Of a DNA stretch of 26,651 bases, positions 7,106-25,327 are shown piece by piece; position 1 is the first letter of the stretch, and every line of letters begins with the position of its first letter. The notes under the pieces were generated by a model, which ran no database searches, was not told the DNA's origin, and saw nothing but the letters and a program-made list of their open reading frames with translations. Source of the DNA: Candidatus Helarchaeota archaeon (GTDB lineage: Archaea > Asgardarchaeota > Lokiarchaeia > Helarchaeales > RDOG01); assembly GCA_029838215.1 (NCBI GenBank), contig JALGVI010000041.1, positions 1 through 26,651 of the forward strand, read 5' to 3'. Made by a program: the position numbers and the translations under genes.

Positions 7106-7345
7106 ATAAGACTCGAAATCAGATTTGGAGAGACCGCTCCTAATTTCACGTTACCCAGCACGGCAGGATCTCCAATGACTTCGAGCGAGTTTCGAAACAA
7201 GAAAAACGTGGTCTTGGTTTTCTTTCGAGGTACTTTTTAAGTACCGTGCCGTGTTCAACTCATGACGTTAAAGAAGCATTAAGATGGTATCAAAGAGTTG
7301 GAAGCAGAAATTTTGGCGACATGCACAGGAACATTAGAGAAAATT
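7106..7345 (+). pseudogene. Degraded, 3'-truncated peroxiredoxin-like (AhpC/TSA, thioredoxin-fold) gene
   Basis: Not in the ORF track. Frame from 7106 reads IRLEIRFGETAPNFTLPSTAGSPMTSSEFRNKKNVVLVFFRGTF*VPCRVQLMTLKKH*DGIKELEAEILATCTG. There is ATA (7106) instead of ATG 5 nt after a GGTGA RBS, TAA at 7238-7240 at the first position of the CxxC-type motif, and TAA at 7280-7282. Similarity fades where the convergent gene's stop codon begins. Confidence 0.8.
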
Positions 7346-8182: not shown

Positions 8183-8671
8183 ATGCCAAGCGTGAATACC
8201 AAAAAAATGCCGAAAAAAAGGAAACCCTTGAGCACTTCAACATATAGACGCTTTCGATACAAGCACAAAAAATGTCAAAAGTGCCACAAGCGTTTCAGAG
8301 ATGGAAATCCTCGTGATAAAATGGAGATTCATCATGTCATTCCACTTTCTCAAGGAGGGACGAATACATACTCAAATCTCAGGGCTCTTTGTGGACAATG
8401 TCATTATTTAGAGCATTCAAATGAGTTCACTGAAGAAGAATTCTTCAGCTTGAGACAAGAACGAGAGGAAAGTCCAAAGGCAAGGGTAAAATCACCTTGG
8501 TGGAGAAAAGTTCGTGAAGAGGGAGACCAAATTTCTCCACCTACTTTTTTGCGCAAAGCCGACATTAATAGTTTCAGATATTTCTCTGGGAGAAGAAGTA
8601 TATTAAAAAACGAAACACATATCAAATTAGAAAAAAGAATACGTGAGGATAGATTTGGAGGAGTTTTTTGA
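8183..8671 (+). CDS. HNH endonuclease (McrA-like, Zn-binding)
   Basis: CQKC...EIHHVIPLSQGGTNTYSNLRALCGQCH: two CxxC pairs plus intact H-N-H residues. The stop overlaps the next start (TTGATG). Confidence 0.9.
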   Translation: MPSVNTKKMPKKRKPLSTSTYRRFRYKHKKCQKCHKRFRDGNPRDKMEIHHVIPLSQGGTNTYSNLRALCGQCHYLEHSNEFTEEEFFSLRQEREESPKARVKSPWWRKVREEGDQISPPTFLRKADINSFRYFSGRRSILKNETHIKLEKRIREDRFGGVF

Positions 8672-10365
8672 TGAAAGTATCCTTTTTTGGTGGAGTCCGA
8701 ACCGTTGGCGGAAATTGCGTGATTCTTGAGCACGCACTCAGCGATGAGGAACCATTCCGCATCATGATTGATTTCGGAAAGAACTTTAAAGATTATGACG
8801 ATTATTATGAAGCATTTTTACGACCTCGTGGGATACAACCCTTGAGGGATCAATTAGCCCTTGGATTGCTTCCCAAAATTGACGGAATATATCGAAAAGA
8901 CCTGTTAGGTATCAATGAAAATGCAGAAATTTCTTTGAAAGAAATCATCGAATCCCACAACGTGATGGTACCAAATCATGCCATAGGTAAAGAAGATCTC
9001 GATCTATGGTCAAGCAGCGTGATTAGTTATGAAGATTATAAAAAAGAACATGATGGTAAGCCTTACCTTGATGCAGTTTTGTTATCTCATGCTCACGTGG
9101 ATCATTCTTCAAACATACCATTTTTAGATCCAAACATTCCGATTTATTGTTCAGGCATTACTAGGGCTTATCTTCAAGTAACCGAAGAAATCTCAGCCAA
9201 AGGCATTGAAGCCGAAATCACACGGGCGAAGATCAGGCAGATTTCTACAACATCAAAATCATCATATTTTCCCGGAAGTTATACTTACAAGGCACCTAAA
9301 AAAGGTGAATTAATAAAAAGGAAGTTTGTTGAAACTACTAATGGTTCTGAAATTCAGATCGAAAAAACGCCTTTTCATGTTAAAGTATTAGAAACAGACC
9401 ATTCAATTCTCGGCTCGCAGGCATTTCTCGTTTTTGTAAATGAACCGGATAGAAAATCCGTGTTCTATACGGGCGATTTGAGATTTCACGGACGAAAAGA
9501 AGACGTTACGGAGAATTTTTTCAGGGATACCGCAGACCTTTCTCCAGACTGCTTGATAATCGAAGGAACAAGGATTACTAGTAATAAACCCGATAATGAA
9601 CACATTGTTGAAGAACGATGCGCGGAAATTATCAAGGAAAGTCCGGGTCTCGTGGTGATTGGATTCTCATGGAGAGATGTAAACAGGTTCGAAACAATCC
9701 TTAATGCAATTCGAAAAAGCAACAGTGAACGCATTTTTGTCATTTCTTCAAAATTGAATTTCCTTTTAAACCGACTAAAGAGCCTCAAAATCAAGGACGT
9801 GCAATTCCTTAACGAAATCCAGCCAGGACAAGTCATGCCTTATTTACCCAGGAAAGCAAGTGGATTTTACACGCTCGGTGACTACGTATATTCGAAACAC
9901 GATGTTGGTTTTGATATCACGTGGGAAAGGGGCAGTAAGACAAGAGAAGCAAGGTCTAATACGTCCCTGTATTATGAATCCATTCGTGCTTATGAGATTG
10001 CACGAAACCCGTCCAAGTTTGTCTTGTTTCTTGATTATTATGATTTTAATGAGCTCATTGACATCTTTAATGAAAAACTCATCACAAGGGCTGATAGCAT
10101 TTATATTGGAGCCATAAGTGAGTATGTTCTTAAAGAAAACAATGGACGGTTACAGAATTGGCTTCGCCACTTTAAAATCAGCGACGATTTACAATTCCAA
10201 GTTCATGCTTCAGGTCACGCCTGCAGAGATGATCTTTTTAAGATAATTTCAAACATGAAACCGAAAAAAGTATTCCCAATTCATACCGAGAAACCGGAAG
10301 AATTTGAGGTCGTTCCCCATAATGTTATAAGCAACATAAAGATTGGTAAGAAATATGAAATCTAA
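8671..10365 (+). CDS. MBL-fold beta-CASP nuclease (RNase J-like)
   Basis: FFGGVRTVGGN, DFG, SHAHVDH (HxHxDH), HS, YTGDLRFHG, IIEGT, HASGH and PIHTE motifs; RBS ggaggag 8657-8663. Confidence 0.85.
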   Translation: MKVSFFGGVRTVGGNCVILEHALSDEEPFRIMIDFGKNFKDYDDYYEAFLRPRGIQPLRDQLALGLLPKIDGIYRKDLLGINENAEISLKEIIESHNVMVPNHAIGKEDLDLWSSSVISYEDYKKEHDGKPYLDAVLLSHAHVDHSSNIPFLDPNIPIYCSGITRAYLQVTEEISAKGIEAEITRAKIRQISTTSKSSYFPGSYTYKAPKKGELIKRKFVETTNGSEIQIEKTPFHVKVLETDHSILGSQAFLVFVNEPDRKSVFYTGDLRFHGRKEDVTENFFRDTADLSPDCLIIEGTRITSNKPDNEHIVEERCAEIIKESPGLVVIGFSWRDVNRFETILNAIRKSNSERIFVISSKLNFLLNRLKSLKIKDVQFLNEIQPGQVMPYLPRKASGFYTLGDYVYSKHDVGFDITWERGSKTREARSNTSLYYESIRAYEIARNPSKFVLFLDYYDFNELIDIFNEKLITRADSIYIGAISEYVLKENNGRLQNWLRHFKISDDLQFQVHASGHACRDDLFKIISNMKPKKVFPIHTEKPEEFEVVPHNVISNIKIGKKYEI

Positions 10366-11458
10366 AGAAGAATTAACCGAAAAGAAGAATTGGACTGCAA
10401 ATTCCTTCGATTTTGTTTACGATGAAGGGCTGATGGAAAAAGCAAAAAAAGAAGCTAAAAAAATCATTGAGAATTACACCAAGTTTCTTGAAAACGTCAA
10501 GAACATGAAATTCGAATACAATCCAATCGAATGCGAGGAAAAATTTCGCAAGATAGCCGCGCTTGACGGTGGAGAGGGGCTTGAGAATCTGTTTGCATCA
10601 AGCATAATCGTGACTCGTGCAGGGGGTGCAGTATTCGAACCATCAAAACGAATCCAGCCGGTCAAACTGTATGACATGTTCATTTCTTCATTAACAGCCG
10701 ATGTTGATAAATTCTCCAATTTATTGCGGGACATTGCAGAATTTAAATTAGCGGATCAATTATTAGATTACAAGCCGGAAATACTCATAATGGATGGTTC
10801 TTTGGTTGGTTACTACAATAGGGGATTACCCTTGCAAGTTTTAGGTTACTTAAACGTTCCAACGGACGAGAAACCGATACTTGAATACATCGAGCAATAT
10901 AAAAATTATGCAAAGTTATTTGACAAGATACTCAAGCGTTGCAGGAAAGAAAATATCATAATAATGGGAGTTTCCAAGGATTCACGCGTCCGATATTTAG
11001 TGAACAAATATAAACTCGATAAAACACTTACGGACTACGGTCTAATTCAATTAAAAATGAAAAAATCAGGATATACACCCCCAATCCAAGCAACACCCCG
11101 CAAGATGGGCATGATTCGAAGAGATGCCATTCAAGAATTCTTTCTAAAAGAAGGTTTGTTTGAAGAGGACCTTGCAGAATTTCAAATTTCATATTTCAAG
11201 CTAAAAGATAGAACAAGACCAGTTAGAGTTGATTTTCCGACTTGGCAGGAAGATCGGTTCGATGAAATAGTCTCTGTCATGAAAACATATCACGATGACC
11301 AAGGTTTTCTATTAACGGCCCATTTGGTCCATAATTGGGCGGTAATGAATGACGAGATAAAAACAAACGTGATTAATGTAATAAAAAGCGAGATTTTAGA
11401 GTCAGATCCCATGATTTATGAGGCAATTTTCAGTGATCAAAGAAGAATGAATATTTAG
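10355..11458 (+). CDS. nurA: DNA double-strand break repair nuclease NurA (copy 1)
   Basis: AALDGG, RDIAE, IMDGSL, GVSKDS and C-terminal LTAHLVH motifs; lies directly upstream of herA. The ORF track starts at 10343. Confidence 0.85.
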   Translation: MKSKEELTEKKNWTANSFDFVYDEGLMEKAKKEAKKIIENYTKFLENVKNMKFEYNPIECEEKFRKIAALDGGEGLENLFASSIIVTRAGGAVFEPSKRIQPVKLYDMFISSLTADVDKFSNLLRDIAEFKLADQLLDYKPEILIMDGSLVGYYNRGLPLQVLGYLNVPTDEKPILEYIEQYKNYAKLFDKILKRCRKENIIIMGVSKDSRVRYLVNKYKLDKTLTDYGLIQLKMKKSGYTPPIQATPRKMGMIRRDAIQEFFLKEGLFEEDLAEFQISYFKLKDRTRPVRVDFPTWQEDRFDEIVSVMKTYHDDQGFLLTAHLVHNWAVMNDEIKTNVINVIKSEILESDPMIYEAIFSDQRRMNI

Positions 11459-11468
11459 AGGTAGGAAA

Positions 11469-13109
11469 ATGTCAAAAACAGAATTGATTGGTAATTTATT
11501 TGGAATGACAACACCCATTGAGGTCAAAATCATCCTAGATCCAAACGTGACTCGAACCAAACCGGTCGAAATCGGTGAATACATCACGATTGGTTATCCA
11601 AAAGAAGTCCTTAAAGAAGAGGTACTTGCTCTCATAACGGATGTTGGTTTGTTAAATGAAAGCATTCCCGACTCCTTGATGAAATCACCAGAGAGTTATA
11701 AAAAACTCGAGCGTTTAGGTGATTTTTCAGGGGGAGAAAAATTACTTGCAAGTGCCAGAATCATTGGCTATTACGATGAAAAGGAAAAAACATTGAAGTC
11801 GCCACGCTTTCCTTCAGTTCCAGGCGCGAAGGTCTATCGGTCCAATATCGATATCTTGAGAAAAGTCTTCTCCGCAGGTCAGGTTCGGATTGGACATCTT
11901 CGTGCACATCCTGACGTAGAAGTTACAGTTGATGTAAATGAATTGGTTCGACGGCATACTTGCATCTTGGCAATAACGGGTGCGGGAAAGGGAAATACCG
12001 TGGCAGTATTATCCACGCGAATTCTGAAATTAAACGGAAGCATAATAATAATTGACCCTCACGAAGAATATCCCAGCCTGCGAGAGTTTGAAGATTTCAA
12101 TGATAAAGTGGTTGTTTTTTCACCGTCTGGAGACACCTCTAAGGGCTACTTTCCTCTCAAGTTTAAATGGAGCAATTTCTCAACGGAAGAGTTGTTCGAA
12201 ATTTTCGAAATAAAGGAAAACGCAACCAAGCAACAAGCCCTCATTCGTGAAGTTCTTGACGTGTTGGAAGATCAAGAATGGGATTTGGACCAATTTAAAT
12301 TCGAACTGGGACGAGTAGAATTACCTGAAGAAGATGATGAGGAAGAAGGGAAAAAGAAAAAGAAGAAAGATCGTTTTAAAGGTGTTAGGCCTGTAGTTTT
12401 GGACCATATTAAGGGTCTTAAAGCACAAGAAATCTTCGATAAAAGAATGGAAACACCAATCGTGGACGAAACAGGTCCGTGTTTTGTCAAGCCAGGTCAA
12501 ATAACAGTAATAAGTGTATCGAACCTCCCGCAAAGAGTGCAACAAGTAGTAGTCGCACGATTAGCAAAGAAAATTTATGAAGCAGGTGTTGCTTGGCGGA
12601 GAAAGATAAGTGATAAAACACAACTTCCTTGTCCAACCTACATGATCATCGAAGAAGCTCACAATTTCATTCCCGCCCGTGGAAGTTCCCGTTCATTAGC
12701 ACCAATTGCCCGAATAGCTGCAGAGGGGCGAAAATTTGGAGTTGGTCTTTGCGTGGTAAGTCAGCGTCCCGGAAAAATCGAACCGAACATATTAAGCCAG
12801 TGCAATTCTCAGATTATCCTAAAGATAGTAAACCCTGAAGACCAATCCCAGATTCGACGTTCAGCAGAAGCGATGAGCGACGATCTACTTGCCGATCTTC
12901 CGAGCTTGAATAAAGGCGAGGCAGTAATAATTGGGTCTTGTTTACTTTTACCTGCATTAGTAAAAATTGACAAGTTTACAGGAGAGTTAGGCGGTGATGA
13001 TATTAACATCATTGGAGAATGGAAATCCACGGCACTTAAAAATGACAAAAGTGAAGATCCCGGTCCGGATTATACTAAAAATAAGAAAATTGAACGGAGA
13101 ACGTGGTAA
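11469..13109 (+). CDS. herA: HerA helicase/translocase (HAS barrel plus DUF87 ATPase), copy 1
   Basis: N-terminal HAS-barrel region, ELVRRHTCILAITGAGKGNT (Walker A), IIDPHEEY, MIIEEAHNF (Walker B), AEGRKFG, SQRP and SQCN motifs. Confidence 0.92.
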   Translation: MSKTELIGNLFGMTTPIEVKIILDPNVTRTKPVEIGEYITIGYPKEVLKEEVLALITDVGLLNESIPDSLMKSPESYKKLERLGDFSGGEKLLASARIIGYYDEKEKTLKSPRFPSVPGAKVYRSNIDILRKVFSAGQVRIGHLRAHPDVEVTVDVNELVRRHTCILAITGAGKGNTVAVLSTRILKLNGSIIIIDPHEEYPSLREFEDFNDKVVVFSPSGDTSKGYFPLKFKWSNFSTEELFEIFEIKENATKQQALIREVLDVLEDQEWDLDQFKFELGRVELPEEDDEEEGKKKKKKDRFKGVRPVVLDHIKGLKAQEIFDKRMETPIVDETGPCFVKPGQITVISVSNLPQRVQQVVVARLAKKIYEAGVAWRRKISDKTQLPCPTYMIIEEAHNFIPARGSSRSLAPIARIAAEGRKFGVGLCVVSQRPGKIEPNILSQCNSQIILKIVNPEDQSQIRRSAEAMSDDLLADLPSLNKGEAVIIGSCLLLPALVKIDKFTGELGGDDINIIGEWKSTALKNDKSEDPGPDYTKNKKIERRTW

Positions 13110-14462
13110 ATGATCGTGAAATGGGGTCACTTTTCAGACACGCATCTTGGTTATCGGCAGTATGGCTTGAAGGAGCGCATGAACGATTTCTATAACTCCG
13201 CCAGAACTTGTGCTGAACTCATCATCAAGCAAGAACCTGATTTCGTAATTTTCGCAGGAGATCTCTTTGAGAATTTCAGACCATTACCCGTGGATTATAG
13301 ATCAGCTTTCGAGCTCCTTAAATTATTCAAGAAGAAGGACATTCCAGTCTATGCTATTCGAGGCAATCACGATGCATCATACGCGGCTTCAAAAAGATAC
13401 GGAGGAGATGTCCTTGATTTTTTGCACGACATCAATTTAATAACTTACGTTCAAGATGAAGTCATCATCGCAAAAAAAGGAGAAAAAGACCTTGCAATTA
13501 TCGCAGGTTTAGGGTATTACGGCAAGCGAACCTCAAAACGGTTACAAGAATTGTTAAATGATAATAAAGTACTCTTGCAACGGCAAGACCTTCCAAAAAT
13601 ACTCATGATTCACGCATTTGTTGAAGGAATGGTTCCAGATACTAAAGAAGACGTGAAAATGTACTTCTTGAGTCAGTTACCCTTTGACTACATTGCCATT
13701 GGGCATTATCACCAGCTTTGGCCCAGTGATTTTGACAAACCTGGCAACAAATTTTTCTGTTCTGGTTCCACGGAACATTGGAGCGCAGGCGAATGGGATG
13801 AAAAGGAGGGAAATCTCTCAAAAGGGTCGAAAAAGGGTTTTTACACGGTAGAAGCAGAAAAGAACGGAAGTGAATGGAAAATTAGACCTTCTTTAACCGA
13901 ATATCCTGTTCGTCCAAAATTCTACGCCCATTACGATTTGAAATTCACGAATCCTAAAAAAATAAGGTCAACAATCAAGGAATTTTTAGATAAGTATGAT
14001 AAAAAAGACCATCTATTAAAGATGAATTTAAGGGGACAATTGAAAAGAGGCGATTTGGCACTCCTCAACATGATGGAGTTAAAAGACATGGCAAATAACG
14101 CCTTATATTTTGATTTAATAACTCAATTCATGGATTCTTCGTATGATATCGAACGTGGATTATCGACTCGAGATGCCATAATAGATATCTTGAGAAAAAA
14201 TTATGGTCTAAAAAACGAAGATTTGGATGAATATACGTCGTTAATTGAAGATATATTGAGTATTGTTAACGATAAAGAGTTTTCTTCGAAGAGCATCGAA
14301 AGAATTAAAGCATCAGTCCCAAAAATGTCAGTAATCCTAGGTGATGATTTAGATGACAAACCCAAGAAAAAGACAACTAGAAAAACGAAAGTAAAAAAAA
14401 TAAAAAGAAGCAAGAAGAAATCGGGCTCAAAAACAAAGAAATCATTGGAGGGATTCATTTGA
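13110..14462 (+). CDS. mre11: DNA repair exonuclease Mre11
   Basis: Phosphoesterase motifs SDTHLG, AGDLFE, RGNHD, MIH and GHYH; Lys-rich C-terminal tail; starts immediately after the herA stop (TAAATG). Confidence 0.93.
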   Translation: MIVKWGHFSDTHLGYRQYGLKERMNDFYNSARTCAELIIKQEPDFVIFAGDLFENFRPLPVDYRSAFELLKLFKKKDIPVYAIRGNHDASYAASKRYGGDVLDFLHDINLITYVQDEVIIAKKGEKDLAIIAGLGYYGKRTSKRLQELLNDNKVLLQRQDLPKILMIHAFVEGMVPDTKEDVKMYFLSQLPFDYIAIGHYHQLWPSDFDKPGNKFFCSGSTEHWSAGEWDEKEGNLSKGSKKGFYTVEAEKNGSEWKIRPSLTEYPVRPKFYAHYDLKFTNPKKIRSTIKEFLDKYDKKDHLLKMNLRGQLKRGDLALLNMMELKDMANNALYFDLITQFMDSSYDIERGLSTRDAIIDILRKNYGLKNEDLDEYTSLIEDILSIVNDKEFSSKSIERIKASVPKMSVILGDDLDDKPKKKTTRKTKVKKIKRSKKKSGSKTKKSLEGFI

Positions 14463-17254
14463 TTCAATTGAATAAGTTAATACTTGAAAATTTCAAGTCC
14501 TATAAGAAGCAAGAAATTACTTTTTTTGATGGATATAACTTTCTCATCGGAAAAAATGGTGCGGGAAAATCCACGGTTTTAGAAGCAATAATATTTGCAT
14601 TTTTCGGGAGGGTTAAGAATAGAGATAAGACCATAAAAAATGATGATTTAATCAGGCGAGGAACGACTTCTTTTCAAGTCATATTGGAATTCACATTAAA
14701 TGGAAATCAGTATAAAGTCGTTCGGACAAATAAATTGAAGGCGAAAGAAGCCGAAGCCCAACTATATCATGATGGAAGTCTCTTGGCTGAAAAAGCACGA
14801 ACCGTAACTAGGGAAATAGAGGAATTATTGAGAATAGACAGGGATACGTTTCAAAACGTGGTCCACGTGGGACAAGGCGAAATTCCCGAGATTGCTACAA
14901 AGCAAGCAGGAAAACGAAAAGAATTATTTGATCGCTTTCTCCAATTGGATCGATACGACAAAATGCACTCAAGTCTTCAACCAGCTCAAAAGGAACTCGA
15001 AATTCAAATAGATTCCATAAAAGAGACCATAAATGATTTGAAAAAAGATACGGAAGATTATGAAGAAAATAAGACGAAGTTAAAAGAAGAAGAAAATCAA
15101 CTCGAAAACCTGAGAGTTGAGGAAGCAAAATTGAAAGAAGAAAAGCAGAGCATCGAGAAAAAACTAGCGGAAGAAAAGGCAAAAAAAGAAGAAATTGATA
15201 AACAAGAAGCAAGGTTAAAAGAAATCTCGGATCAATTTAAGAGGATAAAAGAAAACATAAAGAAAAAGCAGGAAGAATTGGCGGATATTGGAGAAGATAA
15301 GATACCTGACACGGTCAAGGAATTGAAACAGCTTGAATCTAAATTAACAGACAAAAAATCAAAACTTGAGGAAGAAGATAAATCCTGCAATCTAAAAATC
15401 GAAGGGCTCAAGCAAATTCAAACGGAAATTGTCATGCTTCAAGAAGAACTTGAAAGAAATGAAGAGTCTTTAAATAAAATTCAGTCATACTTGAGAGAAA
15501 AAGTCAAGGAAATAAAGAAGCACGATTCGTCTTTCAAAGAAGAATCAACAACAGAAAAATTAACCGAATATGAAACGAAACTTTCGAAAATTGATAAAAA
15601 ACTCTCAGGATTAAATGTTAAAATTGAACAGGTCCGAATACTTGAAAATCAAGTTTTAGAAATCAACCTTAAGATCAAAAATTTTCAGGAAAATCAGGAC
15701 AAATCGGTCAAGGAATCGGAAGAGTGCAAGAAACAATTAAATAAGCTCAATCCCAGATGGAAAAGTTTTCTAAAAGACAACTCGGAAGAACAAATAAAAA
15801 ATAAGATTGAATCATTAGATACAAAGTTGAATGATTTAAATGAAAGAATTTCACGTGTCACGGGATCCAAAGAAGCTTTAATTGCGAGACTGAATGAATT
15901 AAAAGACGAGAGGAAGTCTGTTGAAGAATTAAAGGAGGGAGCGAAATGTACGTCTTGCAAGCAAACCATAAACAAAAAACATAAGGAAAAAGTGTTGGAA
16001 GCTATCGACATTCAAATTGACGGAAAGGAAAAAGAACTACAAAAAGAATCAGCGGAAGAAAAGAGATTAAATATAGAAAAAAACGAAATTCAAGAACAAT
16101 TACGGGTAGCAAGAGATAATGAATCAAATTTTTTGAAGATCAAGCCGCTTCAAGAGAAATTAGAAGCAGCATTACAAGATGCTGAAACCAATAGAGTCCG
16201 GATTGAAGAGCTTAAAATAGAATTGATCAGAATTAAGATTGACGAAGATTCAAAAGTCTTAGAAGACCAAATAGAGAAATGCAGAAATGAAAAAAAACGT
16301 TTTGAAACATTAATCTCGGCAATTCAAGTCATATTGACATACATGAAGCAACGAGATGACGTGCAAAAACAAATAAAAGATAAAAAAATCCAGATTGAGA
16401 AAAAAGAAAAAGAATTTGATGCTGATGAATTGTCCAAATTGGAAAAGCGCGCAAATGAGCTAGATCAAAGCGTCAAAGATCTAATAGGTCATATTAAGTC
16501 AATTACGGAATTATCGAACAGAATCACGGAAAGGAATGAGGTTCAGGGAAAAATGAACGAAGTAATAAAGGCAATTACTAAAATATCAATGACTTTCGAC
16601 TTAGATGCATTTAACCAATTACAAGAAGAAGAAAAGAAAGTAAGTAGCGACCTTACGGAACATACAACTAAAATTCAGACAATTGAGAAAAAAGTCTTAC
16701 CCCAAATGAAAGACAAAATTAAAAGCCAAGAGGATAAATTAAAAAAACTAAAAGAAAAAGAAAAGAAACTCATCATTGACGAAAAGACATACAAGATAAT
16801 CAAGTTTTTACGCGTGTTCACGCGGGAAATAACGCCGGTTCTGCGTTTACAGCACATTCAAAAAATTTCACAGAAGGCCACGGAATTTTTCTCAAATTTA
16901 ATCAATTCAAGTGAATATGGTGCAATTGAAATAAGCCCAAATTATGACCTTTTAATTCAGCGATATGGTATTGCAGAAGACATCACCAATCTGAGCGGTG
17001 GAGAGCAAGTGATTGCTTGTTTGGCAATACGAATGGCAATTGCAGAGGTTCTTGCCAAGCAGGGATTGATACTCTTGGATGAACCCACGGTTTTTCTCGA
17101 TGAAACGAGAATTGAGGCATTGGGCAACATTTTTCAACAGTTTAGACCGGTAAAACAGATGATCGCTGTTACACACGACGAGAGATTTATGACGATCGCC
17201 GATTATTCGATGGTGGTGGAAAAAGAAAAGAGACAATCAGTTGTCCGCATCTAA
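14459..17254 (+). CDS. rad50: Rad50 SMC-family ATPase
   Basis: Walker A GKNGAGKS, Q-loop VGQGE, long coiled coils with a central CTSC Zn-hook (about 15947), signature LSGGE, Walker B/D-loop LLDEPT and H-loop VTHD. TTG start overlaps the mre11 stop. Confidence 0.95.
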   Translation: MIQLNKLILENFKSYKKQEITFFDGYNFLIGKNGAGKSTVLEAIIFAFFGRVKNRDKTIKNDDLIRRGTTSFQVILEFTLNGNQYKVVRTNKLKAKEAEAQLYHDGSLLAEKARTVTREIEELLRIDRDTFQNVVHVGQGEIPEIATKQAGKRKELFDRFLQLDRYDKMHSSLQPAQKELEIQIDSIKETINDLKKDTEDYEENKTKLKEEENQLENLRVEEAKLKEEKQSIEKKLAEEKAKKEEIDKQEARLKEISDQFKRIKENIKKKQEELADIGEDKIPDTVKELKQLESKLTDKKSKLEEEDKSCNLKIEGLKQIQTEIVMLQEELERNEESLNKIQSYLREKVKEIKKHDSSFKEESTTEKLTEYETKLSKIDKKLSGLNVKIEQVRILENQVLEINLKIKNFQENQDKSVKESEECKKQLNKLNPRWKSFLKDNSEEQIKNKIESLDTKLNDLNERISRVTGSKEALIARLNELKDERKSVEELKEGAKCTSCKQTINKKHKEKVLEAIDIQIDGKEKELQKESAEEKRLNIEKNEIQEQLRVARDNESNFLKIKPLQEKLEAALQDAETNRVRIEELKIELIRIKIDEDSKVLEDQIEKCRNEKKRFETLISAIQVILTYMKQRDDVQKQIKDKKIQIEKKEKEFDADELSKLEKRANELDQSVKDLIGHIKSITELSNRITERNEVQGKMNEVIKAITKISMTFDLDAFNQLQEEEKKVSSDLTEHTTKIQTIEKKVLPQMKDKIKSQEDKLKKLKEKEKKLIIDEKTYKIIKFLRVFTREITPVLRLQHIQKISQKATEFFSNLINSSEYGAIEISPNYDLLIQRYGIAEDITNLSGGEQVIACLAIRMAIAEVLAKQGLILLDEPTVFLDETRIEALGNIFQQFRPVKQMIAVTHDERFMTIADYSMVVEKEKRQSVVRI

Positions 17255-17275
17255 AATTAAATCGGTGAAAATGAG

Positions 17276-19141
17276 ATGTCGAATGAAAAAACAACAAGAA
17301 AGCCGAAAAAAAAATCTGTTAAGATAACAAAGAGAATAACTAAAGATGGGGAAATCTTTCAAGCATTCGATTCTCGACTAACATCTTGCATTGAAGAAAA
17401 TGATTTCTTGACAAGTTACGAATTGATAAATGAAGCCAAGGAATTCGTCGATGCAGGCAAATTAACAAAAAAATCTCTTAACCTATTACGATCATTTTAT
17501 GAAAAGAAAATAGAGAAAAAATTAGAAGAACTCGGCTTCGTTGACGTCTCAAATAAAATTCTTTCAACGACTTTTTACTGCATGACACAAAGCTGTAATT
17601 TAGCACTCCGAGGTCCACCCGGAGTTGGAAAATCCTTTTTTGCCAAATCAGTCCTGCCTCATTTATGGGTTCAGGATGGAGAACTCCCAACAGTCATGAC
17701 AATTCAACCCGATCGTAACATGGATGTGGCAAGTCTCATCGTTGAAAAAGGTCTGAAAGAAGGTTCGACTGTTCCTGAAAAAGGACAAATTCATGATGCA
17801 ATGACCAAGGCAAATGATGGTAAACGGGTTATCTTGGTCTTAGAAGAAATAAATCAGTGGCCACCGAAAGTCCTTAAGGATTTAAACGATTTTCTTCAAG
17901 AACGTCGGATTGAAAAGAAAATTTCCGAGATGGACATCATTCTCGAATGTCCTAAAGAAAATTTATTGGTGATTGCGAATTACAATCCAGAAGGAGAAAC
18001 ATTGGGAGAGGATGAGACGGGTAGCGTTTCTTCACGCTTCATATTCTGTGACTTACAATTTCCTTCACGCGAAGACATTCAAAAAATTATTGCTCTTAAT
18101 ATCAACGAACGAGAATTTCGCCCTTTACGTGTTGGATTCGAAAGAAAAAAAGTATGCACGAAACAATTCTTGCGAGCAATGTCCGATGTTTGTTATTCCA
18201 TCAGGAGTGCAATACAACAGGGAGACCTAGGAATGATGGCAATGCAATTAGGCACGCGACATATTATTAATTTTTCAAGGGCTCTTTTCGAAAATAATAC
18301 GATTACGGAAGCCATCATGAAGACATTGGTCGATCCAATCTTGGAAAAATATGTAAGAGAAGGAATCAAGGCAAATGTGGAACCAAAAATATATGAAGAT
18401 TATGTTAGAACAATTTTCAAGGCAGTGAAACAAGTTCTCGGAACAAAGGAACCGATAAATGAAAAAAGCCTGAAGTCCTTAAAAAAAGGATTAGATATAA
18501 CGGCAAGTGAATTATTTAAGTTGAGATCTCAGGAAGCATTCATCATTGATTTGAATGAAACTCCTAAAAACAAGTCTTCTGCAAAGATTGAGAAGGTAAA
18601 AAAGAAAGTTGCAAAAACAGCTAAACGGAAAGTTAGGAAGAAACCCATTACTAAAGAATTGGAAGAATTAGGAATTGACGTGTCCAAACGGTCACAAAAA
18701 CAGGAGAAACCTGAAAAGGAAGATGCACGCGATCCACTCATTCAGTCTATTGATAAACACTTGAAACCGAGATTAAAAACTGGAAAGAAAAAGGAGGTTC
18801 AAGAGGAAAAGATCACCGAAAAGGTCGAACACGAAAAAAAGAGCACCACGGAAAAGAAAGTAACACGTTCAAAGACCGTTGGTGGGTTAATTTGTCCAAA
18901 GTGCGGTGAAGAAATGAAAATAGTCGTGAATAAAAAAAGAACCTTAGTCTGTCAAAAATGCATGAAACTGATAGAACTTCCAATTTTTGGTGATATTAAC
19001 GTGACGGACAAGATCTGTAAAAAGCATGGTTATGGGATTTTTGAAATTGACTACGAGAAATCGGATCCGTATTGCATATGTCCGGAGTGCTTTGACAGAA
19101 AACATAAAACCTGTAATGTATGTGATGAAGACTGTATATAG
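17276..19141 (+). CDS. MoxR/CbbQ-type AAA+ ATPase with charged linker and C-terminal Zn fingers
   Basis: Walker A GPPGVGKS, Walker B LVLEEIN, sensor-I IANYN, Arg-finger SSRF and GTRH. C-terminal CPKC/CQKC and CKKH/CICPEC/CNVC. Adjacent to a vWA gene, as is typical of MoxR proteins. Confidence 0.85.
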   Translation: MSNEKTTRKPKKKSVKITKRITKDGEIFQAFDSRLTSCIEENDFLTSYELINEAKEFVDAGKLTKKSLNLLRSFYEKKIEKKLEELGFVDVSNKILSTTFYCMTQSCNLALRGPPGVGKSFFAKSVLPHLWVQDGELPTVMTIQPDRNMDVASLIVEKGLKEGSTVPEKGQIHDAMTKANDGKRVILVLEEINQWPPKVLKDLNDFLQERRIEKKISEMDIILECPKENLLVIANYNPEGETLGEDETGSVSSRFIFCDLQFPSREDIQKIIALNINEREFRPLRVGFERKKVCTKQFLRAMSDVCYSIRSAIQQGDLGMMAMQLGTRHIINFSRALFENNTITEAIMKTLVDPILEKYVREGIKANVEPKIYEDYVRTIFKAVKQVLGTKEPINEKSLKSLKKGLDITASELFKLRSQEAFIIDLNETPKNKSSAKIEKVKKKVAKTAKRKVRKKPITKELEELGIDVSKRSQKQEKPEKEDARDPLIQSIDKHLKPRLKTGKKKEVQEEKITEKVEHEKKSTTEKKVTRSKTVGGLICPKCGEEMKIVVNKKRTLVCQKCMKLIELPIFGDINVTDKICKKHGYGIFEIDYEKSDPYCICPECFDRKHKTCNVCDEDCI

Positions 19142-19203
19142 GGGGAGATATTTCGCAAACAATCAGTTCAGATCCTTTAATTGGACCCGCATCGTATGAT
19201 GAA

Positions 19204-21501
19204 TTGAAAAAAACAATTGCCATTTGCTCTCAAAATCCCCGGATCGAATTGCAATTTTGTAAAAATGGTTACTACACGGATGGAGAAACAATATTTCTAA
19301 GTCCTCCTCCAACAGAAGTAAAACAAGTGAAAAGATGGATTCTTCTCGAATCTTGTGCAATTCATGAGGCCTGGCATGTTCTATTTCAATCAGATTTTGA
19401 TTTATTGAAAGAATTCATAGAAAAATACGAAAAAAAATACAAAGCAAGGATACCTGACATTGGGAATATTGCCAAGGACATCGTAAACATCATTGAGGAT
19501 GGGAGGATCGAGAACCTGGGTAAAAAACGATTTCAGGGAAATAAAAATACGATAGATTATTCAAATAGCTACTGGCTAACAAAACGTCCATCTTTTAAGA
19601 ACATGTCAGACTGGAGAATTTTTTTAGAGGCAATTCTTGAAGTGTCAATAACAGGAGGGATAAAAGAACGAATTCCTGATGGAGATCTCAAGCGACTCAT
19701 TCAAGCAGCAAGTTTCTATATCTATTGGGCGAAAGAAAGGTTAGATCCAACAGCAACATTTAAAGCTGCAGATAAGATAATGACGTTATTATTGGACTTC
19801 TTCGATTTGGAAGAACCATATTGCGCAGAAACAAAATTGCATCCATCACTAAAATCAAAAGATTCAGATTCCAGCACTGAAGAAAGTTCAGGCACGGCAA
19901 CACCACCTCCGTTACCATCAGAATTAGAACAAGAATTGGATACAATTAAAAAGAAAAGAGAAAAAACTGGAAAAAAAAGTTCCAAATCGACTACAAAGAA
20001 TTCAAAACACGCATCAGAGACGGATAATAAGTCAGGAAAAATGAATGATGTTGATGATAAACTAAAGGGCTTAAATGGAAATCCTGACGTGACGGATAAT
20101 TTAAAGACTAAGAAGGATAAGCCGGAAGATTTTGGAGGTACTAGTCATGAGTCAGAAAATGATGACGACTTCGATAGAGGCTCAGGAGACACTGATGAAA
20201 AGAAAAGTCCTGAAATAAAAAAATCCCCCTCAAAAACCAAGTCCAAATCGAAATCAAAAGCAAATAGAAAAGAAAATCATTCAAAAAACGGGCCTGAAAG
20301 TACATCAAAACACGGCACGAACCATGAAACCAGTCATGATGACATACCGATCATTTCAAGCATGGACCTCGATCCATTTAAACAAAACCTGCTTGATGAG
20401 GCTTCACTAAGAATAAAGATAGAAGATATTTCAAAACGGAACATCCGTTTAATTAATGAAAAAGAAATAGAACACAAGTTGAATGCATTTATCGCAGATC
20501 TCAAGCGAAAAAAGATTTTCAGCAGGGTATTCAAGACAGAAACACAGGATGTTGGAGTTGAAATTCCAATCATTGCAGGACCCAAGAGTCAACATGTCTT
20601 TAATGGTATCAAAAAGTCCATTCAGAAGATCATTCAGGTCACGATCAACCAATTTAAATCACTATTCAAATTTGGGATGAAAAGTTCCAGTCAATTAAAA
20701 TCAGGGAGACTAGATGTTAAACAGGTAGTCCGAGGAATCGTTCGACAAGATCCGCATGTCTTCAAGAAGAAAGTTCTGGAAAATAGCCGGGACGAAATTG
20801 CCATTTCATTATTGATAGATCAAAGCGGTAGCATGTCCGGTTCAAAGATAAAAAATGCTCGGAAAGCAGCAATCTTGTTTAGTGAAGTTTTAAGTGCATT
20901 GAGCATTTCGTTTTCAGTATATGGATGGACGGATATTGAATTTCTACAAAATCATCGCTTGAAATCTATTTTTGGAACTCGATTAAATGCTTTGCATAGA
21001 AAAAACGTGCCCCAGGGAATTAACAGGGAATTCTTTACAATTTTTCGTTATAAAGACTTCAAAGAAGAGTATTCTGAAACGGCTTTTAGGTTAGCAGAAA
21101 TTAAAGCATTTGCAGATAATTCAGACCACAACGCCATAAATTTTGCAGCAGAACAGCTTCTCAAGACGAAAAAACGGTTAAAAATTCTCTTTGTTATTAG
21201 CGACGGACAGCCGGCTGCTTTAGTATATGAATATAAAGCAGAAGAGATTTGTCGTTCCCAAAGTATTTGGGTAGAGCCAGGTAATGTCGGTCTTAATCTC
21301 ACTCGCCAAGCCGTAGAAGCGGCACGGTCAAAAGGAATCCAAGTCATATGCTTGAGCATTGATGAATGTCAAAATTATCAAGAAGAAATCTATGGGAAGA
21401 ATAATTACATAATTTTACCTCCCAGAAGAATTTCGGAATTACCAAACAAAATGGCAAACATCTTGCGACTACTATTAAGACAAGCAGGTTTCAAGTTGTG
21501 A
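19204..21501 (+). CDS. vWA-domain protein (CobT/NorD/CbbO-like) with N-terminal HExxH domain
   Basis: HEAWH at 19363 and NIIEDGRIE; S/K/D-rich linker; MIDAS DQSGS at 20818 and SDGQP at about 21199. The true start may lie upstream of TTG 19204. Confidence 0.85.
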   Translation: MKKTIAICSQNPRIELQFCKNGYYTDGETIFLSPPPTEVKQVKRWILLESCAIHEAWHVLFQSDFDLLKEFIEKYEKKYKARIPDIGNIAKDIVNIIEDGRIENLGKKRFQGNKNTIDYSNSYWLTKRPSFKNMSDWRIFLEAILEVSITGGIKERIPDGDLKRLIQAASFYIYWAKERLDPTATFKAADKIMTLLLDFFDLEEPYCAETKLHPSLKSKDSDSSTEESSGTATPPPLPSELEQELDTIKKKREKTGKKSSKSTTKNSKHASETDNKSGKMNDVDDKLKGLNGNPDVTDNLKTKKDKPEDFGGTSHESENDDDFDRGSGDTDEKKSPEIKKSPSKTKSKSKSKANRKENHSKNGPESTSKHGTNHETSHDDIPIISSMDLDPFKQNLLDEASLRIKIEDISKRNIRLINEKEIEHKLNAFIADLKRKKIFSRVFKTETQDVGVEIPIIAGPKSQHVFNGIKKSIQKIIQVTINQFKSLFKFGMKSSSQLKSGRLDVKQVVRGIVRQDPHVFKKKVLENSRDEIAISLLIDQSGSMSGSKIKNARKAAILFSEVLSALSISFSVYGWTDIEFLQNHRLKSIFGTRLNALHRKNVPQGINREFFTIFRYKDFKEEYSETAFRLAEIKAFADNSDHNAINFAAEQLLKTKKRLKILFVISDGQPAALVYEYKAEEICRSQSIWVEPGNVGLNLTRQAVEAARSKGIQVICLSIDECQNYQEEIYGKNNYIILPPRRISELPNKMANILRLLLRQAGFKL

Positions 21502-22559
21502 AAGAGGGAATGATCATGAAAGACGATGAAATCACGAAAATTTTTTCCGAACTTGATGAAATCTCAGACTCTGGAAGCAAAAAACCAGAAAAAATGATAC
21601 CTCGATCAGTTCAGAAAAAAATCATTAATGATAAAGAAGATGATAAGCACGAAGAGTTAGCCGAAGACGAAGAAATAAAATTAACCAAGAATGATGATGC
21701 TTTCAAGCCAATAAAAGCAAATATCTCCAACAAGTCGGCATTACCACTCTGTGCAATAGATACATCATCAATGTTAGTGGGAGAAACCAACATGGGAATC
21801 ATTTCTGCAGTTCGTGGTTCAATCGTGGTCATTGAGAAACAGATAAAAGTCGAGCAGTTCGGACCTTACGTTCTCCATTTTACAGAAAAGAACAAACAAG
21901 CATGCTATGATTTTTTCCAGCAAAAAATTTTCAACATTAAAAATAAAAGAAAGTCACCAAAATTACAAAAAATGACAGATCGGTTTCGAAATTTCCTCGA
22001 ACGAATCCTGCAAAAATATGCTTGCACGACAATTTCAGGTGGTTTGGTTTTTTTCGATGGTTCGCTAACTGCAGGAACCGTTGACACGCCTAAACAGATG
22101 CTTGAAAACATAATCACGACAGCAAAAAAGAGGAAAAATAACATAATATCAATCTCAAAACGGTCTTGGATTAAACTTTCAAATGGAGATAAAGTGATTG
22201 ACGTTCTAGATCGAAAATTTTATCCATGTTATGTAAAAATTCACGATTATCTTTCACCAATGAATAAATCTCGCGTGTTGGGAACAGTATTTGCTTGCCG
22301 CTTTTCGCATCGAGGTTTTACTTTCAGGACTGATGTGAATTCTCATGTTCCTAGCAAGGAAGAGCAAGCACTTAAAAACGTGTATCAATGCGTTGATTTT
22401 TATAAAGGTTATCCGAATGTGTTGAGACTCGCTCACATGCATTGTTATTTCACGAAATATGAGCTTCTAGCCATGCAAACGTATTCATTACAAAAATATG
22501 GAATGCGAGTATATCAAGATTATGATATAAGAAACCAAATTCTTTCACCATTTAGTTAG
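21498..22559 (+). CDS. NurA-family nuclease (copy 2)
   Basis: CAIDTSS, RNFLE, FFDGSL, SISKRS and GYPNVLRLAH motifs; acidic N-terminal extension. The start may be ATG 21516 after a gaggg RBS. Confidence 0.8.
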   Translation: MKEGMIMKDDEITKIFSELDEISDSGSKKPEKMIPRSVQKKIINDKEDDKHEELAEDEEIKLTKNDDAFKPIKANISNKSALPLCAIDTSSMLVGETNMGIISAVRGSIVVIEKQIKVEQFGPYVLHFTEKNKQACYDFFQQKIFNIKNKRKSPKLQKMTDRFRNFLERILQKYACTTISGGLVFFDGSLTAGTVDTPKQMLENIITTAKKRKNNIISISKRSWIKLSNGDKVIDVLDRKFYPCYVKIHDYLSPMNKSRVLGTVFACRFSHRGFTFRTDVNSHVPSKEEQALKNVYQCVDFYKGYPNVLRLAHMHCYFTKYELLAMQTYSLQKYGMRVYQDYDIRNQILSPFS

Positions 22560-22571
22560 AAGGGTTGAAAA

Positions 22572-24134
22572 ATGGAAATATTTGATAAAAAAGGAAACGA
22601 ATTAATCCTGATCTATGATCCCGTTCAGGAAAAAGACCCTGAAGTGGGAACTAATTTTCTCGTCTTCGATTCAGTTACCCAGCGGGGACTACTTGTATTT
22701 ATAATCGAACAAAATCTCGTCAACGTTCCGGGCATTTTGGAGGAATTGGTTCGAACAGTCGGCTTTGGAAAAGTCGTCACGACAACGCACGTCCCACCAG
22801 AATTGGGAACGTATCTAATAGATGTCAAAAACATGAAATTTGCCCGTGCAAAAATCATCAAGGAGATTAATCTCAATAAGGATAATCCCGACAAGTCGAA
22901 AATAACAAATTGGACAGGGTGGATTCCAACAAGAAATGTGCAAATTAAAAAATTGGACGATAAAACATTAATTCCATGGCTCGAATTTTCTAACAAATAC
23001 TTGATGACTGTCGGAGTCACCAGAATCGATAAACATCCATTCAAGGTTAATGCGGGGTATTTTCAGGGCATTCTTTTGGTTGTTGGTAAAAAAGGATCTG
23101 GGAAATCTCATTTAGTTAAGATAATAACTTTGGAGATCTGTGATCATGGTGGGAAATTTCTGATTTTTGACATCAATAATGAATATGCTAGTCTGGGAAA
23201 GGATCCAGCAGGTAAGCCAAACAAGTATTATAATTGCATTTTGAACTTCACGCCAGGTGATGATTTAAAATTCACGCTCGAGTATGTTGGACTTCCTGTA
23301 TTCACTCAAATTTTATTTCTAACAGGCATTGATGAAACGCGGCCTCAGTATGGTAGTTTCAGGAGCATTTGGCTGGAATTGGAAAACGCCGGCACTTTAA
23401 ATACTACGACTCTTCGTGATGAGATTCAAACACGATTAGTTCAGAGTGGACAGAGCATTAGTCAGAATATCGGGCATGCACTGCTACGGCGGCTGAAATT
23501 GATCTTTGACACGGGACTGTTCACGGACCATCCAGCATCAGCCGTCCGGCTTGAAAAGGAATTTAAGAATATAAAAAAAGGAGGAGCAATAGTCATCAAC
23601 CTAAAAGGAACGGAGAAGCTGGTTCGAGACATTGTTGTCCGCACGATGCTCGAAAAAGTAAGTAAAATTTTAGAAGATCCCAAAGCGGAACCATTATTCT
23701 TGCTTGCTGAAGAATCACAGCTTTATTTTGAAGAGCGAGTCTTTGAAAATCTCATCACCAGAATGCGCCATCTCGGTCTTTATCAAATCTATGTGACCAA
23801 CACGCCAACAGCATTACGGGACATCGTCATTCGACAAACGGATAACATTTTCTTGTTTCGTTTAAGTAGTGAAAATGACGTACGTCATTTGATTGCGGCA
23901 ATTCGACTTGATCGCGAAGCAATCTTTGCTTTGACAAACTCACTTCCTTTTCGAACCTGTTTAGCAATCGGCACGTGCACGAATGAATATCCTTTTCTCG
24001 TTGAGCCAAGAGAACTTGATGTTCTGGCATCTGGTAAAACACGACTATTATTCCCAGATTATAAAGAAATCGATGATGAAGAAGAAGATGAATACGACGA
24101 GGATGATGATGACGATACGAAATTGCAAGCATAA
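22572..24134 (+). CDS. HerA-like DUF87 ATPase (copy 2) with acidic C-terminal tail
   Basis: Walker A GKKGSGKS, IFDINNEY, Walker B LLAEESQ, TRMRHLG, TNTP, RQTDN; tail EIDDEEEDEYDEDDDDD. Confidence 0.85.
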   Translation: MEIFDKKGNELILIYDPVQEKDPEVGTNFLVFDSVTQRGLLVFIIEQNLVNVPGILEELVRTVGFGKVVTTTHVPPELGTYLIDVKNMKFARAKIIKEINLNKDNPDKSKITNWTGWIPTRNVQIKKLDDKTLIPWLEFSNKYLMTVGVTRIDKHPFKVNAGYFQGILLVVGKKGSGKSHLVKIITLEICDHGGKFLIFDINNEYASLGKDPAGKPNKYYNCILNFTPGDDLKFTLEYVGLPVFTQILFLTGIDETRPQYGSFRSIWLELENAGTLNTTTLRDEIQTRLVQSGQSISQNIGHALLRRLKLIFDTGLFTDHPASAVRLEKEFKNIKKGGAIVINLKGTEKLVRDIVVRTMLEKVSKILEDPKAEPLFLLAEESQLYFEERVFENLITRMRHLGLYQIYVTNTPTALRDIVIRQTDNIFLFRLSSENDVRHLIAAIRLDREAIFALTNSLPFRTCLAIGTCTNEYPFLVEPRELDVLASGKTRLLFPDYKEIDDEEEDEYDEDDDDDTKLQA

Positions 24135-24190
24135 TTTTTATAAAAGATCAAGACCGAAATGATTTTAACAAAATTATCAAGGGGAGAAAA

Positions 24191-25327
24191 ATGCGTGGTG
24201 TTTTTAAAGTAGATTCTGTAGCAGATCTCGTAATGAAATGTCTGAAAAGTGATTCTCAAGATATTTCTGAAAAAGAAAAAGTCTTGTTAATTGACATGGC
24301 TCAGGACATATATGATGAATATCCTGAAGTCATAGAAGAAAATGAACTCTCAAGCGAATCTCCAAATGAATGGTCTATAAATGACGTGAAGACTATTTTC
24401 AATCAGATAGAACGAAATCTTTCTAATATTAATGATGATATCCTGAAAAAAATCGGTGACCAAGTCCGAATCTTTGAATCCGATAATATCTTATTTAAAA
24501 ATTATATGGTACTTTCCAAGGTTTTTTCATCTGGAGACTCACTTAGCAAGAAGAAATGTCGTTTTTGGGAAGAATTTTTTGCCTATAACCATGCTTCAAG
24601 AGAAATTGGTTTTTTTGAAGATTCTACGATAGATTCTGCGATCCAACCAGCGGGCAAGATAAAACCAGAGACTTCATTATTAAATCAGACAGTTGACATA
24701 AAGATTTTTAGCATATATGCGTGGAAATACCCAGGCATTTTCGGTAAAAAATATGAAGTCTTATTTAATTATGATATTTTACATGAATTAACAAATGGCA
24801 AGACAGAAAAGATCAACTTCAATCAAAAATATGATTTGAAAAAACGAAGTTTTGCAAGTATCAAGGGCAAGTATATCTTGAAAAATCTCAAAGTTACAGA
24901 TAGAGGAATTAACGTATATATCAAGACCATTAACGTGCAGAATAAAGATGATACGAGAATACTTGAACTCCTTAACTCTGATGCAGTAAATAATGGTGTT
25001 GAACTACTATCGACTTTTCAACCGGTCATCAAACCATTTATTGCTATCGGAAAGAAAATTCTGGAACAGATTAATAAAAGCAACAAAAATCGAATCGTTC
25101 AAGAAATCGACATGTCTCTTGATTTAAACCAGACAGCAGCAGGACCAAAACTTCGCGAAGGAAATTACATCATCGTTCAATATCCATCAGGTTCAAATTG
25201 TCGAGAACCATGGGATTGGTCAAAATGGAAATGGAATAGCCAATATGAAACTCCCATGGGTCCAAATAATTCCCGTATCGAGTGGAATTATATCATATTT
25301 TCAGTAGTAAGATCCCCTACAAGATAA
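24191..25327 (+). CDS. Hypothetical protein (helical N-terminus, beta-rich aromatic C-terminal domain)
   Basis: 378-aa ORF with RBS aggggag; last co-oriented gene of the cluster; no family confidently recognised. Confidence 0.7.
   Translation: MRGVFKVDSVADLVMKCLKSDSQDISEKEKVLLIDMAQDIYDEYPEVIEENELSSESPNEWSINDVKTIFNQIERNLSNINDDILKKIGDQVRIFESDNILFKNYMVLSKVFSSGDSLSKKKCRFWEEFFAYNHASREIGFFEDSTIDSAIQPAGKIKPETSLLNQTVDIKIFSIYAWKYPGIFGKKYEVLFNYDILHELTNGKTEKINFNQKYDLKKRSFASIKGKYILKNLKVTDRGINVYIKTINVQNKDDTRILELLNSDAVNNGVELLSTFQPVIKPFIAIGKKILEQINKSNKNRIVQEIDMSLDLNQTAAGPKLREGNYIIVQYPSGSNCREPWDWSKWKWNSQYETPMGPNNSRIEWNYIIFSVVRSPTR

Follow-up and report, generated by a model that had tools for sequence, protein, structure and literature searches.

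MoxR/CobS-type ATPases of the AAA+ class (ATPases associated with diverse cellular activities) act together with von Willebrand factor A (vWA) partners in metalloenzyme maturation, ribosome assembly and conflict systems; to our knowledge, no such ATPase-vWA pair is known in DNA double-strand-break processing. Here, a pair of this type is described which directly follows rad50 in a stretch of 26,651 nucleotides from a Candidatus Helarchaeota archaeon (contig JALGVI010000041.1 of assembly GCA_029838215.1, positions 1 to 26,651 of the forward strand), referred to below as the window. The term pair denotes an AAA_5 ATPase gene and the vWA gene behind it, and coordinates are window positions unless another locus is named. 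Full-text literature searches and a 2026 review of NurA yielded no mention of a MoxR-vWA pair within a Mre11-Rad50 operon.

Among the nearest described systems is the CobS-CobT motor of the aerobic cobaltochelatase CobNST (PDB 9uka; bioRxiv 10.64898/2026.07.21.739949), which shares the two-gene AAA+/vWA architecture. There, a shaft of CobT (Q373-D414) enters the CobS ring, the client sits between the N-terminal (CobT_N) and C-terminal (CobT_C) domains of CobT, and CobT_N has been likened to peptidase M48C. The client of NorQ-NorD (PDB 9qh6, 9qhd) is the iron site of NorB, and the MIDAS (metal ion-dependent adhesion site) of Rea1/midasin (6qta, 8ql1), a single giant polypeptide, takes ribosome assembly factors as clients; both are without a zincin N-domain. 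Pairs resembling cobST are also found in tailed viruses, e.g. haloarchaeal tailed viruses, Zobellviridae such as ICP2, Pseudomonas phage nickie and Gordonia phages. A role in cobalamin supply has been proposed for viral cobST by Liu et al. 2021 (PMC8651126). Iyer et al. 2021 (PMC7824862) reported MoxR-vWA systems with an N-terminal metallopeptidase, i.e. the same architecture, in group 2.2 jumbo phages, and read phage MoxR-vWA genes as serving virion maturation.

The Helarchaeal genes form a CobS/CobT-like module such as tailed viruses carry. It is best read as an accessory protein-remodelling, possibly proteolytic, machine which is co-expressed with DNA-end processing. To the specific proposal that Helarchaeales have kept a tailed-virus-type CobS/CobT-like remodeller as an accessory of the NurA-HerA-Mre11-Rad50 operon we assign a probability of slightly less than 40%.

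Position of the pair in the operon

The pair lies in a plus-strand operon of 11 co-directional genes, separated by gaps of at most 62 nt according to the open reading frame list (Table 1). No separate promoter would fit into the stretch which separates rad50 from the ATPase gene. At the other end, the TGA of the vWA gene (21499-21501) overlaps a GTG at 21498, and alternative nurA2 starts are available at ATG 21510 and ATG 21516, behind GAGGGA. The spacing from rad50, the overlap of vWA stop and nurA2 start and a vWA start upstream of the listed one (see below) place the pair within a single translationally coupled unit. The first-pass annotation of the window had recognised a MoxR-class AAA+/vWA pair 21 bp after rad50, inside the transcription unit, with a vWA stop overlapping or abutting the nurA2 start; the sequence bears out each of these statements, and the matches to AAA_5 and CobT_C lie above the Pfam cut-offs. 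A search of the window's own genome (3.6 Mb, 170 contigs, 94% complete) returned no second Rad50 copy; the sole other match was weak (E 5e-6) and concerned an open frame of 1193 aa, which is probably an SMC protein.

Domain architecture of the two subunits

The vWA protein matches Pfam CobT_C (PF11775) with an E value of 8.9e-8 and 32.5 bits (cut-off 21), and the same family is matched by all 56 of its wider relatives. Its nearest solved relative is CobT (PDB 9uka), followed by NorD and midasin; the match to 9uka has E 1.3e-12 with a profile of 8 orthologues and E 5e-53 with the 56-member wider profile. In layout it resembles CobT, with an N-terminal domain, then the long disordered charged linker, the shaft and the vWA fold, and it shares the five MIDAS positions. 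In particular, QLKxGRLD corresponds to the CobT shaft region in a hidden Markov model alignment (LkfGrLds against CobT 381-393), and the MIDAS residues D539, S541, S543, N639 and D667, all invariant, align with CobT D422, S424, S426, N518 and D546. The AlphaFold2 (AF2) model of the protein, based on an 85-sequence alignment, has a mean pLDDT (predicted local distance difference test) of 83, with values above 90 outside the linker.

The N-terminal domain carries two conserved motifs, HEAWH and, 40 residues past it, NIIEDGRIE. In the AF2 model, H54, E55 and H58 are placed on a helix formed by residues 41-60, while N95, E98, D99 and E103 are placed on a second one formed by residues 86-109. Across alignments of 85 and of 56 diverse CobT-like proteins, conservation of the underlying patterns HExxH and NxxED reaches 90% or more. 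At the level of motifs, the domain shows the gluzincin arrangement, in which an HExxH helix is followed by another helix bearing a Glu. Moreover, the order of its secondary-structure elements agrees with the published layout of CobT_N. At the sequence level, PF06213 (CobT N-domain) gives no match in the window protein and matches 5 of the 56 relatives in one alignment, and a profile of the N-domain alone, searched against PDB sequences, found nothing and gave no alignment with CobT_N. Comparison of the N-domain with Pfam at E up to 10 returned nothing meaningful, neither SprT nor WLM among the matches. In structure searches with the full-length vWA model, matches to the vWA domain took up the hit lists.

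The ATPase matches Pfam AAA_5 with E 3.4e-10 and 40.5 bits (cut-off 22 bits), and its orthologue at locus L012 reaches 49.7 bits. Walker A (GPPGVGKS) is kept in all five alignment rows which cover that segment; Walker B (VLEEINQWP, with E-E for D-E), the sensor-1 Asn (NYNPEG) and the arginine motif (SSRF) are invariant among the orthologues. The protein starts with a basic tail (residues 1-25, net +8) and a helical N-domain, followed by the AAA core (residues ~105-260), a lid and a helical C-domain up to ~425, a Lys-rich linker (residues 426-537, net +17) and a Cys-rich tail (residues 538-621). Ten Cys of the tail are invariant across 6 orthologues and form two to three predicted zinc ribbons. 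Neither the N-domain nor the C-helical domain gave a meaningful match in Pfam at E up to 10. Compared with CobS, the Helarchaeal ATPase is too divergent for a sequence match, and the basic linker and the ribbons are additions. Extra zinc-ribbon-like Cys pairs were also noticed elsewhere, namely in the N-terminus and linker of the ATPase of genome G301 (locus L013, 7774-9960) and in the N-terminus of a distant viral/metagenomic vWA protein (L021, 2039-4132). The virus-type CobS/CobT kinship, the intact zincin motif and the added putative ribbons go beyond what the first-pass annotation had seen.

Viral relatives and their genomic context

The language-model look-alikes of both subunits (Atlas) are tailed-virus proteins, with scores of 0.96-0.98. 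The full-length structural matches of the vWA protein in BFVD are viral CobT-like proteins, the best being from Haloarcula californiae tailed virus 2 (E 1.9e-22); a scan of IMG/VR with the family patterns returned no close viral relative. The viral pairs possess the same HExxH/NxxED N-domain, and their neighbours, too, are DNA-metabolism genes. Homologous cobT/cobS genes stand in replication modules, with genes for helicase, primase, ligase and polymerase around them, in five of the six phage loci inspected (nickie, JGB6, T5S1, ICP2 and RHph_N1_15), the neighbours in the sixth, from a Gordonia phage, being uninformative. Furthermore, one metagenomic relative (L020) adjoins a family B polymerase (PolB) gene.

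The Helarchaeal genes differ from these pairs in being cellular, chromosomal and part of a rad50 operon. Sequence identity is ~20-28%, and the Helarchaeal ATPase is about twice as long and bears the zinc ribbons. The viral look-alike ATPases of ~300 aa, as well as three shorter viral/metagenomic ATPases compared, appear to be without the Lys-rich linker and the ribbons. A provirus origin of the region itself was considered and is not supported, as ordinary metabolic genes form its flanks and it is even in base composition.

Distribution and synteny in Helarchaeales

All genomes compared are metagenome-assembled, the linked loci are kin, and two of them (L014 and L016) are near-identical. At 90% identity, 5.8 billion protein clusters include just 8 of the vWA family and ~18 of the ATPase family. 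The usable names of both families are Helarchaeota or Lokiarchaeota, save for one contig with a bacterial name. In an exhaustive profile search, scores drop from above 1e-80 to 1e-38 outside the clade, beyond which ~6,000 CobT-like proteins were found. The pair family is confined to Helarchaeales, and since the nearest relatives outside the order are metagenome proteins, no donor can be named. Among 301 genomes sampled from the phylum, an orthologue was found in only one besides the window's own. Within the order, the pair is present in four of seven species genomes, i.e. both of f1, two of the three of f3 and none of the two of f2. The contig with the bacterial name, DATKTP010000227.1 (L015), was deposited as 'Candidatus Deferrimicrobium sp.' and bears the Helarchaeal Rad50-AAA-vWA cluster; as it is also grouped in the window's order in the genome collection, its name or binning is probably wrong.

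The ATPase and vWA genes are adjacent in all eight related loci. Where upstream sequence is available, the order Rad50-AAA-vWA is found in 4 of 5 loci, at protein identities of 43-54%; three further related contigs are cut upstream of the pair. The longer order NurA-HerA-Mre11-Rad50-AAA-vWA is shared by the window, L014 (Hel_GB_A) and L019, and Rad50-AAA-vWA occurs in L012/L015 (G297), where the contig ends. The linkage of Rad50, AAA and vWA genes exceeds chance, though the genomes are few and related. It is frequent and probably ancestral to f1 and f3. The synteny described by the first-pass annotation therefore holds in part: the linkage to rad50 recurs in other Helarchaeales, while the abutment to nurA2-herA2 belongs to this window only, these genes not being found after the vWA gene in L012, L013, L014, L016 and L017.

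In loci of the f3 type, a convergent CARF-like regulator (HFX_2341_N/DUF6293) and an HNH gene come directly after the vWA gene (L012 10994-13077; L014 12482-14565; L016 3585-5668; L017 3815-6951). A HAD-family gene stands between the two in three of these four loci (L012, L014 and L016); in L017, a beta-CASP gene precedes the regulator instead. The f3-type regulator copies match each other with E about 1e-127. A CARF-like regulator and an HNH gene thus recur beside the cluster in the window and in the f3-type loci. The regulator of the window, a CARF-like helix-turn-helix protein (HFX_2341_N/Csa3_N; 7344-7961), lies upstream of the operon and is divergent to it. It was noticed to be a paralogue distinct from the f3-type regulators within the same Pfam family (HFX_2341_N/DUF6293).

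Interpretation and proposed mechanism

Several observations weigh against an accessory remodeller tied to the repair operon. In the closest relative of the window genome, which belongs to its family (G301 = G306), the pair is unlinked and stands between thiolase/OB-fold genes and an acyl-CoA dehydrogenase gene; no orthologue of the window Rad50 was found there with the window Rad50 as query. The first-pass annotation had counted closest homologues in unrelated metabolic contexts as evidence against its own proposal, and this case is of that kind. Genome G240 (f2) has an orthologous HerA-Mre11-Rad50 cluster which stands without the pair. Part of the rad50 linkage could, moreover, be plain inheritance among relatives. 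At the protein level, the N-domain of genuine CobT is a client-binding surface and not a known protease (bioRxiv 10.64898/2026.07.21.739949). The zinc-ribbon tail has generic ribbon matches in Pfam, all under the cut-off, and its best PDB sequence match, the C-terminal ribbon of E. coli topoisomerase I, is not significant (E 0.05). The AF2 model of the ATPase, from a 6-sequence alignment, is poor, with a pLDDT of 56 and values below 50 across residues 145-290.

The relatives concerned have Mre11-Rad50 genes of their own. The sole HerA-Mre11-Rad50 operon found in G301 is divergent, encodes a short Rad50 of 676 aa and lacks the pair (G301:C3; L032 4296-10397). In G240, there are two HerA-Mre11-Rad50 clusters, G240:C98 (L042 2699-10411) and G240:C158 (L041 3-4680), neither with the pair; the one that is not orthologous to the window's is divergent and adjoins a homologue of the window CARF-like regulator (E 4e-23). 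The pair was found in neither f2 genome (G240, G305). The f2 cluster without the pair indicates that Mre11-Rad50 does not need it, and, together with G301/G306, points to an accessory which is able to persist without the linkage to rad50.

For the preferred reading, an accessory remodeller, we infer a ring-and-shaft mechanism, for which CobST, NorQD and Rea1 are the models. The ATPase would assemble into a hexameric ring, into which the pre-vWA shaft of the vWA subunit would insert. A client would be held between the MIDAS face and the N-terminal zincin-like domain; ATP hydrolysis would pull on it, and cleavage at the conserved HExxH...E site may follow. The Lys-rich linker and the zinc ribbons of the ATPase would anchor the machine on DNA. 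As the pair is co-transcribed with rad50, its client is suggested to be a protein on DNA ends or on DNA; end-blocking or tightly bound proteins would be suitable, and the repair complexes themselves less likely so.

Cdc48/p97 works with Wss1/SPRTN, which are proteases of DNA-protein crosslinks. A stronger form of the proposal would make the Helarchaeal pair an archaeal analogue of it, in which a DNA-anchored AAA+-MIDAS-zincin machine extracts and cleaves proteins that block DNA ends or are cross-linked to them, in concert with Mre11-Rad50 and HerA-NurA. The two would have in common an AAA+ motor, an HExxH metalloprotease, zinc or basic DNA-binding elements beside Mre11-Rad50, and protein-blocked DNA as the target. 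However, they share no sequence or family kinship, as no SprT, WLM or Cdc48 match was obtained in Pfam at E up to 10, and this functional speculation is doubtful.

Since CobT_C is the best Pfam/NCBIfam family of the vWA protein and CobT its best PDB relative, the pair could be taken for a genuine cobaltochelatase motor (CobS/CobT) which acts on CobN in the synthesis of cobalamin, the usual annotation of phage cobST genes and the role that Liu et al. 2021 (PMC8651126) proposed for the viral genes. We give this a very small chance. CobN (PF02514) was not found in the window genome (G000, 94% complete) or in G301, while the positive-control genomes were matched, and where it exists (G297, G302) it is directly followed by its own Mg-chelatase-type subunit of 726-727 aa; with no CobN in the genome, and with the existing CobNs having their own adjacent motor, a cobaltochelatase role is unlikely. 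In addition, the vWA protein scores 28.5 bits against a cut-off of 759 bits for NCBIfam CobT, the ATPase profile fails to reach CobS in PDB, the N-domain does not align in sequence with CobT_N, and the genes belong to a DNA-repair operon. Mre11-Rad50 or HerA-NurA could also be the clients of a dedicated chaperone which assembles them, loads their metal or takes them off DNA ends, with acidic segments of the operon proteins docking on the MIDAS; these were the clients named by the first-pass annotation. MoxR-vWA pairs usually have their client encoded in the neighbourhood (Kaur et al. 2020, PMC7159879), the pair is directly coupled in translation to rad50 and, in the window, to nurA2, and Rad50-AAA-vWA is the order in 4 of 5 loci. 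An operon product is thus a possible client; nevertheless, it is not favoured over a third-party protein bound to DNA, because nurA2-herA2 adjacency is unique to the window, G301/G306 keep a pair unlinked from their divergent Rad50 with no window-type Rad50 found, and the f2 genomes have no pair, even beside the orthologous cluster of G240. The G301/G306 and f2 cases weaken both proposed clients, a conserved protease-like site would be unexpected in an assembly chaperone, and we consider this role quite unlikely.

The cluster, or at least the pair, might instead be an anti-virus or conflict system, made up of a MoxR-vWA unit with a peptidase effector, nucleases and a CARF-like sensor. PADLOC gave no match for either protein of the pair, and the third component expected from the ternary criterion of Kaur et al. 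2020 (VMAP, iSTAND, beta-propeller or FtsH) does not stand beside the pair in the loci inspected; in contrast, MoxR-vWA systems with vWA-fused peptidases have been described as conflict systems, and the operon holds HNH and beta-CASP nucleases, a second NurA-HerA pair and the CARF-like regulator. The patchy presence of the pair (4 of 7 genomes of the order) fits such a role, as does the match of HerA1 to anti-phage HerA models of PADLOC/NCBIfam, although repair HerA models are matched better. With the linked Rad50 being the only one of the genome, and the closest relatives of both proteins being viral and not from defence islands, we hold a conflict system to be rather unlikely. The similarity of both subunits to tailed-virus proteins is also what would be expected of a domesticated or hitch-hiking viral CobST-like module, with a function unrelated to its repair neighbours (e.g. 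generic protein maturation) and a position after rad50 inherited by accident. Every linked locus comes from one order, and in G301/G306 the pair is a free-standing two-gene unit. Such an accident would, however, have to account for a linkage which outlasts divergence to 43-54% identity at near-zero intergenic spacing, for phage pairs which likewise sit among DNA replication genes and not randomly, and for a lineage-specific gain of basic linker and putative zinc ribbons, which fits a nucleic-acid context; it is a possible explanation but not a likely one.

Implications

The linkage observed in Helarchaeales agrees with the replication-module position of the phage genes and with the absence of CobN. 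Taken together, these three lines set a concrete, testable alternative against the label "cobalamin biosynthesis" which phage cobST genes routinely receive. If a DNA-anchored, protein-clearing machine proves to be the correct reading, the 'cobS/cobT' genes that are widespread in tailed phages would encode protein-clearing machines associated with replication and repair and not be cobalamin auxiliary metabolic genes. The three lines also suggest a route to ATP-driven protein removal from DNA in archaea which stand near the eukaryotic ancestor. The Helarchaeal clade is very small and uncultured, not all of its members show the linkage, and the clients considered here are candidates.

Feature coordinates, start codons and minor observations

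Table 1. Features of the operon and of the pair, in window coordinates (aa, amino acids; res, residues).
Feature	Position	Strand	Basis or remark
Operon order: HNH nuclease, MBL/beta-CASP nuclease, NurA, HerA, Mre11, Rad50, AAA_5, CobT_C/vWA, nurA2, herA2, 378-aa protein	8183..25327	+	Pfam/NCBIfam
rad50	14459..17254	+	NCBIfam Rad50 models, E 3e-79; stop TAA 17252-17254
Spacer between rad50 and ATPase gene	17255..17275	+	21 nt; GGTGA 6-10 nt before ATG 17276
AAA_5 (MoxR-class) ATPase, 621 aa	17276..19141	+	Pfam AAA_5
Predicted C-terminal zinc-ribbon cluster of the ATPase	18887..19138	+	C540/C543/C559/C562; C581/C602/C605; C613/C616/C620
CobT-type vWA protein	19150..21501	+	783 aa from ATT 19150; 765 aa from listed TTG 19204
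N-terminal zincin-like domain	19204..19833	+	Helix, 3 strands, ~7 helices; pLDDT >95
HEAWH (H54-E55-x-x-H58), zincin metal/catalytic motif	19363..19377	+	Invariant in 8 orthologues
NIIEDGRIE (N95, E98, D99, E103), candidate third-ligand 'Glu helix'	19486..19512	+	Invariant in orthologues
Disordered Lys/Ser/Asp/Glu-rich linker, res 212-380	19837..20343	+	pLDDT <50; composition; length variable among orthologues
Long helix and pre-vWA extension with conserved QLKxGRLD	20344..20796	+	H399-436 and following elements (AF2 model)
vWA domain with complete MIDAS	20797..21498	+	D539, S541, S543, N639, D667
nurA2-herA2	21498..24134	+	Pfam NurA, DUF87; abuts vWA stop; this window only

The frame of the vWA gene is conserved 5' of the listed TTG at 19204. 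Orthologues begin with M..D(S/P)LIGPAS, the window encodes DPLIGPASYDEL at 19171-19206, and there is no canonical start in frame upstream of the TTG. The conserved N-terminus therefore indicates that the real start is probably a near-cognate one, ATT 19150 or ATC 19162. ATT 19150 sits behind GGGGGAG, and the ATT and ATC starts leave 8-20 nt after the ATPase stop. Fusion of the two genes by TAG read-through was ruled out, as their reading frames differ.

Likely ATT, ATC or ATA starts a few bases past GGAGGG or GGGGGAG were noticed at several loci (window 19129-19206; L015 2147-2185; L019 7940-7975; L013 9945-10010). In L015 and L019, it is the ATPase gene which probably starts at an in-frame ATT or ATA behind GGAGGG, and the ATPase frame of L019 has no canonical start within its first 80 codons. 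The vWA gene of L013 has ATC as its likely start; its protein (P0005) is annotated in the database with a later one, past the conserved N-terminus.

The last gene of the operon (24191-25327, 378 aa) matches no Pfam family, and none of the related loci fetched contains a homologue of it. Roadblock/LC7-Ras GTPases are typical Asgard signature proteins, and on the minus strand at 852-1910 the window encodes a Ras-family GTPase (Ras E 3.7e-47) with a fused Roadblock/LC7 domain.

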